Positions 39,247 to 44,087 are shown, counted from the stretch's first letter. The stretch is 64,000 bases of DNA from Candidatus Cloacimonadota bacterium (GCA_009777575.1 WRLO01000002.1:28386-92385), one strand, 5' to 3'. Notes: generated by a model from the letters alone, not told the origin. Translations and numbers: made by a program.

Positions 39247-39396
39247 CTATTTTATCTTAAAATCAAAAATTAATTGCTTGGGTTTTGCACGAAACTTAGG
39301 GCAAGAAACTAATATCAAAGCCTTTGTCTGTTTGCAGTTACGCATACATCTAACACACAATTTGTTGATGTCGCTATCTAGTTTTTTCGGTTTCAT
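39247..39396 (-). CDS. 49-aa Cys-rich microprotein (not in the ORF track)
   Basis: MKPKKLDSDINKLCVRCMRNCKQTKALILVSCPKFRAKPKQLIFDFKIK; co-directional and ends 7 nt before the rsmD start. Confidence 0.6.
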   Translation of the reverse strand: MKPKKLDSDINKLCVRCMRNCKQTKALILVSCPKFRAKPKQLIFDFKIK

Positions 39397-39564: not shown

Positions 39565-40347
39565 TCATAATTTAAACAACCTTTGAAAAAAATTTTTTTT
39601 CAAAGGAATTTGTTGTTTATGATTATAAAAATGTGGTAAATCTTCATTATTGAGCATTTTTTGAGGATATTCAACTCCTAGTAAATCAGCAGTCTTATCA
39701 CCAAATATTTTTCTCAGGACATCTATAGCTTCTGGAAAATCATAAACTCCATTTTGGCAATGACAATCTGTTCCTAAAAAATGAGCATATCCTCTATCTA
39801 TCAGCTCAAAAGACACATCTTTAACTCGATTTCCATATAATCCCAAGAGGCTTCCAGTGTTTATTTGTAAATATACATCCCTGTGCATGAATTCTTCTGC
39901 TAATAGCGGTTTTTCTTTTATTTCGACATATCTTTCTGGGTGAGCGAGAATCGGTTTAAAGCCCAGTTTGCCTAATTTATATAAATTTTCATATAAATCA
40001 TATGAAAAACCTGTCAAACTGTTTTCCACTAAAACATACCTAGAACCATTGATCATAAAGGAATTAATTTGAATATCATCAATAGATTCATTACCAACAA
40101 GGTATATTTCTGCAGCACAATAAGTATTTAAGATATACCCTTTTCTTTCAATTATTTGTCTTGTTCTTTGATAGACATCTAGAATTTTATCTTTTGTATT
40201 GTTATAAAATCCTCTCATATAATGAGGCGTGAATACTATTCCTTCCATTTTTGCCTCAACTACTCTGTCTATATAAAAAGCAGTCACATCTTCATGTGGA
40301 GAACCATCATCAAGACCGGGTAAAATGTGATTGTGGATGTCAATCAT
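39565..40347 (-). CDS. PHP-family tyrosine-protein phosphatase (CpsB/CapC-like)
   Basis: MIDIHNHILPGLDDG, TPH, AHPERY and GTDCH motifs. Confidence 0.9.
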   Translation of the reverse strand: MIDIHNHILPGLDDGSPHEDVTAFYIDRVVEAKMEGIVFTPHYMRGFYNNTKDKILDVYQRTRQIIERKGYILNTYCAAEIYLVGNESIDDIQINSFMINGSRYVLVENSLTGFSYDLYENLYKLGKLGFKPILAHPERYVEIKEKPLLAEEFMHRDVYLQINTGSLLGLYGNRVKDVSFELIDRGYAHFLGTDCHCQNGVYDFPEAIDVLRKIFGDKTADLLGVEYPQKMLNNEDLPHFYNHKQQIPLKKNFFQRLFKL

Positions 40348-40422
40348 AATAAAACAATAAATACTCCCTTATTTTAAGTTTTATAACTCTATTTTAATTA
40401 TAATACGAAAAATATTTATCCT

Positions 40423-41172
40423 CTACTTTTTTTTGTGAATTGCATCTGCAAATTCTTTTATTATCAGAGGATTATCAATATTTTCCAAAGCAGTTCCTAC
40501 AACGATAATATCAGCTCCCGCAGTTGCTTTTTCATAAGCAAGTTCTGGGGTTCTTATTCCACCGCCTACAATCAAAGGCACATCAATATGTTCTTTTACC
40601 GCTTTTATCATTTCGTCTGGAACTTGGAGAACAGCACCACTACCAGCTTCGAGGTAAATTAATTTTTGACCCATATATTGAGCTGCTAGAGAATGAGCTA
40701 CTGCTATATCGCTTTTTAACCTTGGAATTGGAAAACTATGACTCATATATTGAACAGAGGATAAAGATCCTGATTCAATCAATAAATAAGCAGTAGGAAT
40801 GACTTCAAGCTTTGAGTGATAAACTAAAGGAGCAGACCTAACTTGTTCATTGATTAAAACTTGAGGGTTTCTGCTGCTCAACATATTGAGCATAAGCAAA
40901 GCATCTGCATGAGGACAGACAAAATTGAAAATGCCGGGGAAAATTATCAAGGGAATGTTTACCTGTTTTTTTATCTCCTTGATAGTATCAGAAAACCAAT
41001 TATTCATCATCATGCTACCTCCTATAAGGATAGCATCTGCACCGTTTTCAGCATATAGCTGAGCGACCTCAATAGATTGATTTATTTCCAATTTATCAGG
41101 GTCTATCAAACATAAAAAAGCTGATTTATCTCGAATTGTATCGAGTAAATACTTAAATGTTGTGTCTTTCAT
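40423..41172 (-). CDS. Geranylgeranylglyceryl phosphate synthase (group II GGGPS)
   Basis: LIDPDK, GGS, FPG, SSRN, AYLLIESG, YLEAGSGA, VGGGIR and VVGT motifs of the GGGPS/PcrB TIM barrel. Confidence 0.92.
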   Translation of the reverse strand: MKDTTFKYLLDTIRDKSAFLCLIDPDKLEINQSIEVAQLYAENGADAILIGGSMMMNNWFSDTIKEIKKQVNIPLIIFPGIFNFVCPHADALLMLNMLSSRNPQVLINEQVRSAPLVYHSKLEVIPTAYLLIESGSLSSVQYMSHSFPIPRLKSDIAVAHSLAAQYMGQKLIYLEAGSGAVLQVPDEMIKAVKEHIDVPLIVGGGIRTPELAYEKATAGADIIVVGTALENIDNPLIIKEFADAIHKKK

Positions 41173-41179
41173 TTGTCTC

Positions 41180-42088
41180 CTAAAACCTTAAATTAATTAT
41201 ATCGTTTGATATAAATGATATAACAATCAAAAGCATGTTTAACTTCATTATTTTTTGTGTGATTCTGACAATCTTCATATTATTATTATCTAAATTTGCT
41301 TGATTCATGTGCTTAGATTTACACAAAACTATAATCATAACAAAAACTGGGAGGGTTATGACTAAATGTAAAGCATACCACAAAAAATCATTAACATGAT
41401 AAAAATAATAGATATTTGCGACTAAAATCATTGCTGGTAACCATAACAATCTAGCGGTGTTTAATTTTCCCAAAACAACTGCTATTGACCTGACATTTCC
41501 AATCATATCGCCTTCATAATCTTCTATAGTTTTTACCCATTCTCTCATGATGGTGTAAATAAATGAAAAACAGACGATAGGCATTATATTTTGAATATTT
41601 GAATTTATCAAAGCACCATATATGAATGTCGAACAAGCGTTCCATGCAACGATAATATTTCCTAATAAAAAAGTTTTTTTGAAAATTCTCGCATAACAAT
41701 AAAGACTGATAGAGTTCACCAAAGCAATGATGATACAGTAGATATTTCTTGTCCAGAAAGCAAAAATAAAGCCTATAATGAAAAGAAAGAAACAATATTT
41801 TTTTGCCTGTAATAAAGACATTAAACCCTTTGGCAATGTTCTATCCGGTTTGTTCTTTTTGTCAATTTCAAAATCAAAAAAATCATTGACCACATACCCA
41901 CCAGCTGCGATAAGAAATGTAGAAATACAAGCAAATATAATGGACAATGGAAATTGGAAAATGGGGAATGACTGATAAGAAAACTGGGGATTATTTAAAT
42001 ACCAAAACCCTATAAATGTTGTAAGCATAGCAAACAAGCAGTTTAAAGGTCTGATAATTTTTAAATAAGCAATGATTTTCATTAGCAT
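41180..42088 (-). CDS. UbiA-family prenyltransferase, probable DGGGP synthase
   Basis: IIRPLN, NDFFDFEIDKKNKPDRTLPKG, FKK..LGN and REWVKTIEDYEGD motifs; multiple TM segments; directly upstream of GGGPS. Confidence 0.82.
   Translation of the reverse strand: MLMKIIAYLKIIRPLNCLFAMLTTFIGFWYLNNPQFSYQSFPIFQFPLSIIFACISTFLIAAGGYVVNDFFDFEIDKKNKPDRTLPKGLMSLLQAKKYCFFLFIIGFIFAFWTRNIYCIIIALVNSISLYCYARIFKKTFLLGNIIVAWNACSTFIYGALINSNIQNIMPIVCFSFIYTIMREWVKTIEDYEGDMIGNVRSIAVVLGKLNTARLLWLPAMILVANIYYFYHVNDFLWYALHLVITLPVFVMIIVLCKSKHMNQANLDNNNMKIVRITQKIMKLNMLLIVISFISNDIINLRF
41939..41973. repeat. Five degenerate heptamers inside the DGGGP synthase CDS
   Basis: AATGGAC AATGGAA ATTGGAA AATGGGG AATGACT; encodes part of QSFPIFQFPLSI on the minus strand. 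Confidence 0.65.
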
Positions 42089-42113
42089 AATTTTTTTGTC
42101 CTATTTTATTTTA

Positions 42114-42187
42114 TCCCCCCCCTGCCCCCCCCATAAATGAGCGGGGAAATCCTCCCCCAACATTTATGGGGGGGGAGCAGGGGGGGA
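42114..42187. repeat. GC-rich long inverted repeat between the polyprenyl synthase and UbiA genes
   Basis: C8-TG-C8-ATAAATG ... CATTTAT-G8-AGCA-G7. Confidence 0.8.
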
Positions 42188-42212
42188 GTTTATAGACATG
42201 TATTTTCCTATA

Positions 42213-43100
42213 TCATGGTAACCTATCTTTGACCATATTGACAAATTCAAGAAGATTTTCATTATTTTTCATATTTTTTACTAGTTTATATGAATCATCA
42301 AGCAATTTATCCGCCATTTTTCTTGCCTTATCTAGTCCCATGATGGTAGGATATGTAGTTTTATTGTTTTTAACATCCTCAAAAGGATCTTTTCCTAGGG
42401 TCTCAAAATCTCCTACATCATCCAGAATATCATCAATTATCTGATAAGCATGTCCTAAATTCATAGCGTAAGTTGACAATGTCTGAGTGAGTGTATAGTC
42501 TGCATCGGCACAGGCACAAGCCATTCGGATAGCTGCATCCAATAATGAACCTGTCTTTTTGGAATGCACATATCTTAATATGTTTAATTGTAAGACTTGC
42601 TTATCTGATGATAAAACATCAACGGTCTGCCCTCCTATCATACCTCTTGTTGAGACGGCGTTACACATTAATTGAACCAAATATAATGCTACTTCTTTGT
42701 TTTCATAAAGAGTCAGCATTTCAAAAGCTTTTGTCAATAATGAGTCACCTGCTAAGATTGCAGTCGCTGGGTCAAATTTTACATGACAACTTGGTTGCCC
42801 TCTTCTTTCGTTTGAATCGTCAAGAGCTGGTAAATCATCATGTATCAATGAGGCTGTATGAACCATTTCCAAAGCAGCGGCCACCGGGAGCAATGGTTTT
42901 ATCTTTTCTAAATCATTTGATAGCTTAATCATTTCATAAGTCGCAAAAAACAAGACAGGTCTAAGTCTTTTGCCACCACTAAAAACAGAATAATTTATCG
43001 CCTGATAAAGCCTTTCAGGTTCAAGGTCTTCGTAATTTAGATATTGCTTGAGCGCTTCATCCAAAAATTTTGTTCGAGTGTTAAAATATGATTTTAACAT
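42213..43100 (-). CDS. Polyprenyl diphosphate synthase, probable GGPP synthase
   Basis: GGKRLRP, HTASLIHDDLPALDD (FARM with small Ala at -5), GQ, KTG and YQIIDDILD (SARM) motifs. Confidence 0.88.
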   Translation of the reverse strand: MLKSYFNTRTKFLDEALKQYLNYEDLEPERLYQAINYSVFSGGKRLRPVLFFATYEMIKLSNDLEKIKPLLPVAAALEMVHTASLIHDDLPALDDSNERRGQPSCHVKFDPATAILAGDSLLTKAFEMLTLYENKEVALYLVQLMCNAVSTRGMIGGQTVDVLSSDKQVLQLNILRYVHSKKTGSLLDAAIRMACACADADYTLTQTLSTYAMNLGHAYQIIDDILDDVGDFETLGKDPFEDVKNNKTTYPTIMGLDKARKMADKLLDDSYKLVKNMKNNENLLEFVNMVKDRLP

Positions 43101-43130
43101 AAAATAAAGTTCCTTTTATCTTTAAGTATT

Positions 43131-44087
43131 TTAAACTACTCCAGATTTAATCAAATCGTGCATATGTAAGAGACCAACTGGCTCGTCTTTTTCATTTACA
43201 ATGGGTAGCATTGTGATTTTATATTTTTCCATTAGATTTAAGGCTTCTACTGCCAATTCTTCTGGATGCATTCTCTTGGGGTTGACTGTCATTACACTTA
43301 ATACAGAAACCTTTAAACTGATATTTCCTTGCGATAAAAATCTTCTCAGGTCTCCATCTGTAATTATTCCTATCAATTTATTGTCTTGAGAAACTATATT
43401 TGTGCAACCAAGTCCTTTTGATGTCATTTCTATGATAGCCTCTTGCATATCAGAGGAATCTTTTGTGGTAGGGTTTTGCCGTCCTTTGTGCATTAGGTCT
43501 GATATTTTTAAAAGAAGTTTTTTTCCTATTACTCCACCGGGATGATATTGTGCGAAATCATCTATTTTAAAACCTTTTTGGGTTAATACTGACACCGCTA
43601 AAGCATCTCCAATTGCCAACTGAACTGTAGTACTTGCTGTTGGAACCAGTCCGAAAGGTTCTATGTCTTTTTCTATGGAAGAGTCTATCACATAATCGGA
43701 GTTTTTAGCTAAGATTGACTCAGTATTTCCAGTGATTGAGATTAGAGGGATTTTGTGAAATTTAATAAATGGTATGATAGAAACCAATTCCTGAGTATTT
43801 CCACTTTGAGAAAAAGCAAGCACTACATCACTTTTTTGAAGCATTCCTAAATCTCCATGAATACCCTCAGCTGGATGTAAATAAATTGAAGTTGTTCCAG
43901 TAGAAGCAAAAGTTGCTGAGACCTTGCGTGCTATTATACCTGATTTTCCCATGCCTGTCGTTACTAACTTGCCTTTGCATTTAAATATAAATGAAATAGC
44001 TTTTTCTATATCCTTTGTTATTTTAGCTGATGCTTTTTTGATTGCTTCAGAACTGGAAAGCATCTCTTTTTGGATGATAGTTTTCAT
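43131..44087 (-). CDS. kdsD: Arabinose-5-phosphate isomerase (KpsF/GutQ family, SIS plus CBS domains)
   Basis: TGMGKSG, HPAEGIHGDLG, PTASTT, HPGG and ITDGDLRR motifs. Confidence 0.92.
   Translation of the reverse strand: MKTIIQKEMLSSSEAIKKASAKITKDIEKAISFIFKCKGKLVTTGMGKSGIIARKVSATFASTGTTSIYLHPAEGIHGDLGMLQKSDVVLAFSQSGNTQELVSIIPFIKFHKIPLISITGNTESILAKNSDYVIDSSIEKDIEPFGLVPTASTTVQLAIGDALAVSVLTQKGFKIDDFAQYHPGGVIGKKLLLKISDLMHKGRQNPTTKDSSDMQEAIIEMTSKGLGCTNIVSQDNKLIGIITDGDLRRFLSQGNISLKVSVLSVMTVNPKRMHPEELAVEALNLMEKYKITMLPIVNEKDEPVGLLHMHDLIKSGVV

Follow-up and report, generated by a model that had tools for sequence, protein, structure and literature searches.

The closest described counterparts of the locus analysed here come from the same phylum. 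In Black Sea members of the Cloacimonadota, Villanueva et al. (2020; PMC7852524) found GGGP synthase activity, obtained PG-archaeol in E. coli and detected transcripts of all three genes by RT-PCR. Within the wider FCB group, the enzyme of Flavobacterium johnsoniae (4JEJ) has been proven to act as a G1P-dependent GGGP synthase (cited in PMC7852524). Bacillus subtilis PcrB, another bacterial member of the PcrB family, links a polyprenyl chain to G1P through an ether bond; the resulting heptaprenylglyceryl phosphate is dephosphorylated and acetylated and is not CDP-activated. Bacteria with the capacity for archaeal-type ether lipids are relevant to the “lipid divide” and to the natural stability of mixed membranes. 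We know of no cultured member of the Cloacimonadota in which these lipids have been demonstrated, and our literature search gave nothing contrary.

We analysed a stretch of 64,000 nucleotides (the window) from a Candidatus Cloacimonadota bacterium, in which a sequence-only reading had proposed adjacent, co-directional genes for a polyprenyl synthase, a UbiA-type prenyltransferase and a group II GGGP synthase. All three ORFs were recovered on the minus strand (Table 1), with family matches that agree with the proposal. The gaps between genes are 30 nt (kdsD-like gene to synthase), 124 nt (synthase to UbiA gene) and 7 nt (UbiA gene to GGGPS gene). We read the locus, with a probability of about 0.75, as the form that the archaeal pathway to the isoprenoid diether core takes in a divergent family of the Cloacimonadota. 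The models, solved relatives, tree and co-occurrence data described below all agree with the earlier suggestion that this bacterium carries a GGPP/GGGP/DGGGP triad of archaeal type.

Table 1. Features of the locus, with positions counted from the first letter of the window.
Feature	Position	Strand	Basis
KpsF/GutQ-family sugar-phosphate isomerase, kdsD-like, SIS and two CBS domains	43131..44087	-	TIGR00393
Short-chain trans-prenyl diphosphate synthase, type II GGPPS character, 295 aa	42213..43100	-	Pfam polyprenyl_synt
Dispersed G/C-run palindromic repeat copy between synthase and UbiA	42115..42187	-	sequence, copy search, fold
DGGGP-synthase-type UbiA prenyltransferase, 302 aa	41180..42088	-	Pfam UbiA, 6M31 match, tree
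Group II geranylgeranylglyceryl phosphate synthase (GGGPS), PcrB family, 249 aa	40423..41172	-	TIGR01769, NF003198
CpsB/YwqE-type PHP-domain phosphoesterase, 260 aa	39565..40347	-	PF19567, YwqE 3QY6

The triad does lie directly downstream of the gene that had been read as kdsD. This gene belongs to the KpsF/GutQ family (TIGR00393, 314 bits; cut-off 204) and falls below the cut-off of the KdsD equivalog (332 bits; cut-off 505). We rejected the linkage as meaningful because the thrS-kdsD flank occurs in only 2 of 14 relatives (two of five in family f1 and none of nine in other families). The kdsD-like gene is an upstream neighbor outside the conserved lipid block. At the other end, the three-gene unit proposed at first stands and is extended by a fourth gene, encoding a CpsB-type phosphatase.

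The window synthase matched PF00348 (polyprenyl_synt) with 193 bits and the NCBIfam FPPsyn subfamily model with 287 bits, above its cut-off of 275, while it missed the cut-off of the curated GGPPS equivalog CrtE (NF045685; 241 bits against 460). Both Asp-rich motifs are intact (FARM, D88-D89-x4-D94; SARM, D223-D224-x2-D227). Published mutagenesis has established that small residues at positions -5 and -4 before the FARM, where FPPS has an aromatic residue, lead to longer products. The Ala five residues before the first Asp-rich motif, which had been taken to favor products longer than C15, was identified as A83 and is followed by S84. This argument on chain length stands and gains from the comparison within the genome: a second synthase, on contig C131, carries Tyr-Thr at these positions and is of the FPPS type. 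The Ala-Ser pair was present in 17 of 17 cassette-linked synthase orthologues. From these residues we infer that the window synthase would produce C20 GGPP. A phmmer search of the genome with the window synthase as the query returned only two trans-prenyl synthases, each of the short-chain type, and no long-chain prenyl synthase.

The predicted GGGPS matched PF01884 (PcrB) with 145 bits and exceeded both curated cut-offs (TIGR01769, 212.8 bits against 161.6; NF003198, 278 bits against 247). Compared to the group II structures, it scored 177 bits for 4MM1 (40% identity), 170 for 4JEJ, 150 for 6NKE and 145 for 6JO3, versus approximately 35 bits for the group I enzyme of A. fulgidus (2F6U) and for Bacillus PcrB (1VIZ and 3VZX). 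These scores support the assignment of the putative enzyme to group II. It is encoded by a single-copy gene and is the only PcrB protein in the genome. A Bacillus-type PcrB/C35 pathway was rejected because the GGGPS falls in group II and both synthases of the genome are of the short-chain type.

The genome has a single UbiA-family gene, and its product matched PF01040 with 119 bits. Its top three NCBIfam models were all of the DGGGPS type, and it fell below the equivalog cut-off of each (NF009521, 179.5 bits against 296; NF009523, 145.7 against 269; NF009522, 122.3 against 353). Its best solved relative was the DGGGP synthase of Methanocaldococcus jannaschii, MjDGGGPS (6M31; 114 bits, E = 7e-32, 34% identity over 259 residues), as compared with 29 bits for a chlorophyll synthase (ChlG) structure; the match to 6M31 is decisive as regards the fold. 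Motif 1 reads N68-D69-x2-D72-x3-D76, where N68, D72 and D76 align to N62, D66 and D70 of MjDGGGPS, and motif 2 (Y130...K135) aligns to the Y...K motif of that enzyme. The protein is divergent, with at most 48% identity to any sampled relative. In a maximum-likelihood tree it grouped with the verified MjDGGGPS and archaeal DGGGPS-type sequences in a 39-row clade of moderate support (83/90), and MenA-like, chlorophyll-synthase and other UbiA paralogs lay outside this clade. The UbiA proteins of family f1 formed a clade of their own (support 100/98) with no unusually long branch. The grouping with quinone or heme prenyltransferases that had been named as an outcome that would refute the proposal was not what the tree gave. 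We rejected the possibility that the UbiA protein serves quinone, heme or chlorophyll synthesis, on the basis of the tree, the model scores and its status as the sole UbiA protein of the genome.

To place the locus in its phylum, we surveyed 151 genomes. The UbiA and GGGPS genes occurred together in 65 genomes and neither occurred alone in any; in 55 of the 65 pair-bearing genomes they were adjacent and in the same order. Because the order is kept in so many of these genomes, the arrangement is not due to chance. The full order synthase-UbiA-GGGPS, with the synthase orthologue directly upstream of UbiA, was found in 14 of 14 relatives, and at least eight families of the phylum share the block. 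The UbiA and GGGPS genes together behave like a cassette between the prenyl synthase and the CpsB-type phosphatase, both of which stay when the cassette is absent. The catalytic motifs of the synthase were intact in all 17 cassette-bearing genomes compared; among 23 genomes without the cassette, 18 had altered motifs.

In the proposed pathway, the window synthase would extend C5 units to GGPP, which fits the Ala-Ser pair before its first Asp-rich motif, while the Tyr-type synthase on C131 would provide FPP for housekeeping. The soluble group II GGGPS would then join glycerol phosphate and GGPP through an ether bond to give GGGP, and the membrane-bound UbiA enzyme would add a second geranylgeranyl chain to yield DGGGP. 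The sequence-only reading had noted that a G1P dehydrogenase, CarS and a geranylgeranyl reductase (GGR) were not seen in the window and had suggested a genome-wide search. Of these three, only the GGR was found: an archaeal-type reductase that forms a single 475-aa protein with its ferredoxin and is encoded outside the window, on contig C24. No match to the G1P dehydrogenase (Fe-ADH_2, EgsA/AraM; PF13685) or to CarS (PF01864) was obtained in the whole 91%-complete genome, so the gene set of a complete archaeal phospholipid pathway is not present. A GGR orthologue occurred in 63 of the 65 cassette-bearing genomes; it carries the motif PxxYxWxFP, and its ferredoxin is either fused to it, as in the window genome and one genome of family f11, or encoded directly upstream. 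Such a reductase could saturate the chains, and the bacterial CdsA, which is present in the genome, could replace the missing CarS and activate the lipid for head-group attachment. The outcome would be isoprenoid ether phospholipids beside ordinary bacterial lipids.

The lack of a G1P dehydrogenase raises the question of the glycerol backbone. It is possible, although we favor the reading given above, that these enzymes work as predicted on sn-glycerol-3-phosphate, in which case the products would be isoprenoid ethers of bacterial chirality and not truly of the archaeal type. This would account for the absence of any Fe-ADH_2 match, and it is consistent with the observations that a Cloacimonetes GGGPS also took G3P in vitro and that DGGGPS is reported to tolerate G3P-based GGGP. 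On the other hand, GGGPS enzymes strongly prefer G1P, and the genome is incomplete (91%). Furthermore, E. coli without araM still produced G1P-based archaeal lipids (Caforio et al., as cited in PMC7852524), which suggests that a bacterial G1P source of another kind exists.

A second question concerns the later motif of the UbiA protein. The sequence-only reading had cautioned that this motif reads KTIED instead of KDIED, and the caution was justified: the stretch is K186-T187-I188-E189-D190-x3-D194, and the pattern D-x2-D-x3-D of motif 3 (D180, D183 and D187 in MjDGGGPS) is replaced by T187-x2-D190-x3-D194. The missing residue is a sensitive one, as the D180A substitution strongly reduced the activity of MjDGGGPS (PMC9385802). 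One reading of these data is that the f1 enzymes are poor makers of DGGGP, and that the pathway stops at a mono-ether derived from GGGP or that another acceptor is prenylated. In addition to the effect of D180A, motif 3 mutations impair GGGP binding, the Asp is absent from the window protein and from all five sampled f1 relatives (four with Thr and one with Val), and the window protein misses every DGGGPS equivalog cut-off. We consider this reading unlikely, however. The remaining catalytic residues (N68, D72, D76, Y130, K135, D190 and D194) are kept, Thr differs from Ala in that it can still form hydrogen bonds, and the f1 UbiA gene is intact, adjoins GGGPS and does not sit on an unusually long branch. 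Moreover, in four genomes of the Thermoproteota and Nitrososphaerota the only DGGGPS-type paralog reads KTVED; in two of these four, the other UbiA paralogs were classified by NCBIfam as MenA-like or unassigned, and the archaeal KT-type proteins also fall below the DGGGPS equivalog cut-offs. KTIED is a genuine departure at an Asp that is sensitive to mutation, yet it is a family-wide trait that also occurs in archaea.

The fourth gene of the block suggested another fate for the lipid. The CpsB-like gene lies directly downstream of GGGPS, at a distance of 5–79 nt, in 62 of the 65 cassette-bearing genomes, even where UbiA is unlinked, and in 11 relatives it is followed by genes for an SDR, a methyltransferase, a flippase-like protein and MoxR. 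It could be speculated that the ether lipids, rather than being CDP-activated as bulk phospholipids, lose their phosphate to the co-transcribed PHP phosphoesterase and are then tailored in the manner of Bacillus heptaprenylglyceryl phosphate. This is also unlikely, and a dedicated lipid phosphatase was demoted as an explanation for the gene. The phosphatase occurs in 143 of the 151 genomes, including 78 that lack the cassette; its ordinary partner, a Wzc-type BY-kinase, is above cut-off in 140 of 151; and f12, the only family without the phosphatase, is also without a BY-kinase above cut-off. Both by motif and by best structural match it corresponds to the Tyr phosphatases YwqE and CpsB (PF19567, 146 bits; YwqE 3QY6, 101 bits), and in the window genome the SDR-to-MoxR block is detached and lies on another contig. 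The most likely explanation is that the CpsB-like protein is an ordinary phosphotyrosine phosphatase. A second role for this phosphoesterase, as the long-sought phosphatase of bacterial isoprenoid glycerol ethers, would mean that the Cloacimonadota complete their ether lipids by a CDP-independent route. We regard this as improbable, since it is weakened by the persistence of the phosphatase without the cassette and by its absence from the one family that lacks a BY-kinase above cut-off.

The idea that the triad stems from archaeal contamination, or was transferred very recently and binned wrongly with a bacterial genome, finds some footing in the nearest named UbiA relatives outside the phylum, which are DPANN archaea and one Cytophagia MAG (30–36% identity), and it is rejected as extremely improbable by the GC content of the triad, which equals that of its flanks, by its position in a 97-kb contig among thrS, the kdsD-like gene, cysS and rsmD, by an independent JGI assembly contig with identical gene order and by the phylum-wide synteny. 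The identical GGGPS protein lies on a JGI metagenome contig.

The gap between the synthase and UbiA genes is occupied by a palindromic repeat whose arm has at least 27 genomic copies with two or fewer mismatches. As RNA it is predicted to fold into a very stable hairpin (-62.7 kcal/mol, z = -5.1), and the region was also called terminator-like in our scan. Such a gap was absent in the 14 relatives compared. The repeat could act as an attenuator or stabilizer within the operon. An Rfam search of the window gave no matches, and a promoter scan of the window returned 52 sites as compared with 40 ± 7 expected by chance, which is not above chance.

How does the locus compare with the systems known from other organisms? 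The GGGPS shares the phosphate-binding stretches GGS, YLEAGSGA and GGGIR with the group II enzymes of M. thermautotrophicus (4MM1) and F. johnsoniae (4JEJ). In nine Bacteroidota loci, by contrast, GGGPS is not beside a UbiA homologue except for one weak and distant match, whereas the window GGGPS follows UbiA immediately. B. subtilis PcrB is a group I enzyme that uses a C35 chain from a heptaprenyl synthase, while the window genome has no long-chain synthase and does have an enzyme for a second prenyl transfer. The UbiA protein shares the N/D/D residues of motif 1, the Y...K pair and the last two Asp residues of motif 3 with MjDGGGPS (Ren et al. 2020), and differs in having Thr187 where the archaeal enzyme has D180 and in its bacterial host. 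In Methanosarcina acetivorans, according to a review (PMC10821996), a GGR with PxxYxWxFP is paired with a 2x[4Fe-4S] ferredoxin encoded at the same locus; in the window genome the two are fused, and their gene lies on a different contig from the triad.

The presence of this gene set in the Cloacimonadota and other FCB genomes had been noted as already reported, and the literature bears this out for the phylum (PMC7852524). A 2020 publication had already described this gene set in the phylum and tested it in E. coli, so the locus adds one more, divergent case to a known oddity. It establishes no new principle, since earlier work had covered the genes themselves, what they do in E. coli and how widely they occur in the FCB group. 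What the comparison adds is detail. The ether-bond genes are either both present or both missing, and in most lineages without them the neighboring synthase shows altered catalytic motifs; the cassette is accompanied by a ferredoxin-GGR unit; a DGGGPS residue that is sensitive to mutation has changed naturally from Asp to Thr both in this bacterial family and in the Thermoproteota and Nitrososphaerota; and the adjacent phosphatase is matched in the phylum by the kinase that is its ordinary partner. These details could guide experiments.

The nearest systems are the Black Sea Ca. Cloacimonetes MAGs NIOZ-UU1 to UU4 (Villanueva et al., ISME J 2020/21; PMC7852524), which, compared by their published description, encode these three enzymes together on a single piece of DNA. 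Both further have a second polyprenyl synthase elsewhere in the genome, GGR and CdsA, and lack egsA/araM and CarS. The genome and a Black Sea Cloacimonetes MAG share the FPPS-dut-trmN6 synteny, with approximately 54% identity, which lends support to placing the organism in the Cloacimonadota. The window genome differs in belonging to another family and habitat, and it is set apart by the Asp-to-Thr replacement at the start of motif 3, the fusion of GGR to ferredoxin, the palindromic repeat between synthase and UbiA and the detachment of the downstream SDR-to-MoxR genes.

Five genes transcribed in the same direction from the minus strand fill window 39565-44087 (see the table). The sequence-only reading had singled out three of them, encoding a polyprenyl synthase, a UbiA-family prenyltransferase and a GGGP synthase (GGGPS), as an archaeal-type ether-lipid precursor triad. 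Gene order, family models and nearest structures all confirmed that observation. The solved structures nearest to the GGGPS were the group II proteins 4MM1 (177 bits) and 4JEJ (170 bits), while group I and PcrB structures reached only ~35 bits. For the UbiA protein the nearest was the M. jannaschii DGGGP synthase (MjDGGGPS, 6M31; 114 bits, 34% identity), and chlorophyll synthase came second at 29 bits. The residues named in that reading were also correct: A83 and S84 occupy positions -5 and -4 relative to the first Asp-rich motif (FARM; D88) of the synthase, and the later UbiA motif is K186-T187-I188-E189-D190. An independent JGI metagenome contig carries the same gene order downstream of GGPS and an identical GGGPS protein. 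Promoter-like matches in a scan were no more frequent than expected by chance.

Features of the locus and of related sites on other contigs (C24, C25) of the same genome; L029 and L128 are fetched loci
Feature	Position	Strand	Remarks
KpsF/GutQ-family isomerase, kdsD-like	43131-44087	-	
Polyprenyl synthase	42213-43100	-	passes FPPsyn subfamily model (287 vs cut-off 275 bits)
G/C-run palindrome, 73 nt	42115-42187		
UbiA-family prenyltransferase	41180-42088	-	top three model matches DGGGPS-type, each under its equivalog cut-off
PcrB-family protein (GGGPS)	40423-41172	-	TIGR01769, 212.8 vs cut-off 161.6 bits; NF003198, 278 vs 247
CpsB/CapC-type PHP phosphoesterase	39565-40347	-	
Cys-rich ORF, 49 codons (MKPKKLDSDINKLCVRCMRNCKQT...)	~39250-39396	-	inside the 324 nt that separate the CpsB-like gene from rsmD
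Ferredoxin-GGR fusion, 475 aa	C24:23340-24764; L029:1216-2643	-	
SDR-to-MoxR block	C25:37338-41441; L128:4369-8445		behind a T9SS-tailed subtilase gene

To place the UbiA protein we built a maximum-likelihood tree of 54 sequences (LG+C20+F+G4, 291 columns). The window protein fell within the clade of its own family, f1 (support 100/98), which was nested in a group of Cloacimonadota and Bacteroidota (87/92). This group in turn lay in a 39-sequence clade with MjDGGGPS and archaeal DGGGPS-type sequences (83/90), a node to be read knowing that several long branches meet and deep support is moderate. MenA-like proteins, chlorophyll synthase, Bacillus/Pirellulaceae homologues and other archaeal UbiA paralogs were outside it. 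The placement agrees with both the model scores and the trees of Villanueva et al.

A caveat raised earlier, that the UbiA motif reads KTIED for KDIED, is real: Thr187 aligns to D180 of MjDGGGPS. In the mutational data of Ren et al. 2020, as cited in a review (PMC9385802), the substitutions D66A, D70A, D180A, D183A and D187A strongly reduced MjDGGGPS activity, and motif 3 mutants were impaired in GGGP binding. The Thr187 departure therefore falls at a functionally sensitive position, and one possibility is that the f1 enzyme is impaired or has a changed acceptor. We consider this unlikely. KTIED occurs in the window protein and in four of five f1 relatives (KVIED in the fifth), and other families of the phylum have KDxED. 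We argue that Thr is tolerated at the first Asp position of motif 3, and predict that the enzyme is active, because all other motif residues and the ORFs are intact in f1, the stem of the f1 clade is not unusually long, and the same change occurs in archaea. Four genomes of Thermoproteota/Nitrososphaerota, which depend on the DGGGPS reaction, carry KTVED in the sole UbiA paralog strongly matching the DGGGPS-like profile. Their other UbiA paralogs are MenA-like or unassigned (NCBIfam, two of the four genomes).

Across a sample of 151 genomes of the phylum, UbiA and GGGPS orthologues occurred together in 65, and no genome held just one. The two genes were adjacent, UbiA first, in 55 genomes of eight families. 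The order synthase-UbiA-GGGPS was found in 14/14 relatives sampled from six families, and in 12 of these the CpsB-like gene came next inside the fetched stretch. A CpsB-like gene followed GGGPS after a gap of 5-79 nt in 62 of the 65 genomes; in the remaining three the two genes lie on different contigs. Family f2 has a split block, in which synthase-UbiA and GGGPS-CpsB occupy separate sites. Where the pair is missing (families f3, f6 and f7), the synthase gene lies immediately next to the CpsB-like gene; UbiA-GGGPS thus acts as a cassette of two genes whose neighbors on either side are retained in its absence. Loss of the cassette in f3, f6 and f7 appears more parsimonious, since the full arrangement is present in both sampled orders of the class. 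Outside the phylum, GGGPS-DGGGPS adjacency was seen solely at a Methanosarcinales locus (L012) and one from an unnamed archaeon (L016), where two GGGPS-like ORFs, one divergently oriented, adjoin a DGGGPS homologue.

The synthase motifs and the GGR correlate with the cassette. All 17 cassette-bearing genomes sampled for motifs had intact FARM, second Asp-rich motif (SARM) and Ala-Ser, and 63/65 had a strong GGR orthologue. Most cassette-less f3 genomes lack GGR; among 16 sampled, the FARM is a conserved DDxxxxM, 13 have Glu in place of the first SARM Asp, and later Asp positions are also changed. The two genomes sampled from f7 genus g15 have completely degenerate motifs (SALPSLND; RRG lost) and no GGR. 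Cassette-less f6 (two) and f7 genera g22/g32 (three) have intact motifs and GGR. Beside the CpsB-like gene the altered synthase is still an intact ORF (f3 loci L091, L094 and L099-L113; g15 loci L093 and L115), which makes it a candidate pseudo-enzyme or neo-enzyme. As independent evolutionary events are few, perhaps two or three, the correlation is suggestive, not statistical. The motif pattern fits a role in which the window synthase would supply GGPP to the ether-lipid pathway.

The CpsB-like protein has an N-terminal DxHxH...DDG, and among solved structures it matches the phosphotyrosine phosphatases YwqE and CpsB best. Its gene is single-copy in 143/151 genomes, 78 of them cassette-less. 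A Wzc-type BY-kinase scored above the TIGR01007 cut-off in 140/151, including this genome (contig C65). Family f12 (six reduced, single-contig genomes of 1.5-1.6 Mb), the one family lacking the phosphatase, also has no kinase over cut-off and no cassette. Most simply, the two proteins would be a usual kinase/phosphatase pair, the phosphatase gene being by coincidence a fixed downstream neighbor; that the protein dephosphorylates an ether lipid is unlikely.

Some features of the locus are specific to its lineage. The palindrome occupies most of the 124-nt gap between synthase and UbiA, genes that abut in relatives. Its arm, CATTTATGGGGGGGGCAGGGGGGGG, is a dispersed repeat with at least 27 copies in this 34%-GC genome, and as RNA the palindrome folds into a highly stable hairpin (-62.7 kcal/mol, z -5.1). 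In 11/11 relatives checked, genes for an SDR/epimerase, a methyltransferase, an LPG_synthase_TM/flippase-like protein and a MoxR ATPase come after the CpsB-like gene. Here that block is detached and rsmD and cysS come after CpsB, an order confirmed by the JGI contig. Runs of at least 18 G at many contig ends of this genome (e.g. C3:33, C4:61, C7:57) are probably a sequencing or assembly artefact.

For the rest of the pathway we searched the whole assembly (3.76 Mb, 198 contigs, 91% complete; the contig that holds the window is 97 kb long). PcrB, the UbiA family and bacterial CdsA are each represented by a single gene. The sequence-only reading had seen no G1P dehydrogenase, CarS or GGR in the window. 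Genome-wide the first two are indeed missing, with zero matches to Fe-ADH_2 (EgsA/AraM) and CarS in this 91%-complete genome, but one GGR-family gene exceeds the cut-off, on contig C24. It encodes an N-terminal 2x[4Fe-4S] ferredoxin fused to a GGR in which both the catalytic PxxYxWxFP motif and LxGD are present. The fusion recurs in one f11 genome; in f1, f5 and f10 relatives an ORF of its own, ~57-69 codons long and directly upstream of GGR, encodes the ferredoxin. This pairing mirrors the ferredoxin dependence of the M. acetivorans GGR (reviewed in PMC10821996). The genome has two trans-prenyl synthases, the window copy and one on contig C131 with Tyr-Thr at -5/-4, the FPPS pattern. The latter adjoins dut, as in a published Black Sea Cloacimonetes MAG, with which this genome shares FPPS-dut-trmN6 synteny and ~54% protein identity (PMC7852524 supplement), a likeness that points to membership of Cloacimonadota.

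In Ca. Cloacimonetes, Villanueva et al. (PMC7852524) reported two synthases, GGR and CdsA present, egsA/araM and CarS absent, and a polyprenyl synthase gene that shares its scaffold with the ether-lipid genes. A purified enzyme showed GGGP synthase activity, E. coli with both enzymes formed PG-archaeol, and RT-PCR detected transcripts of all three genes. The present genome repeats the entire presence/absence pattern, which supports the archaeal-type lipid-precursor interpretation, and the locus is a new, divergent member of this already published system.
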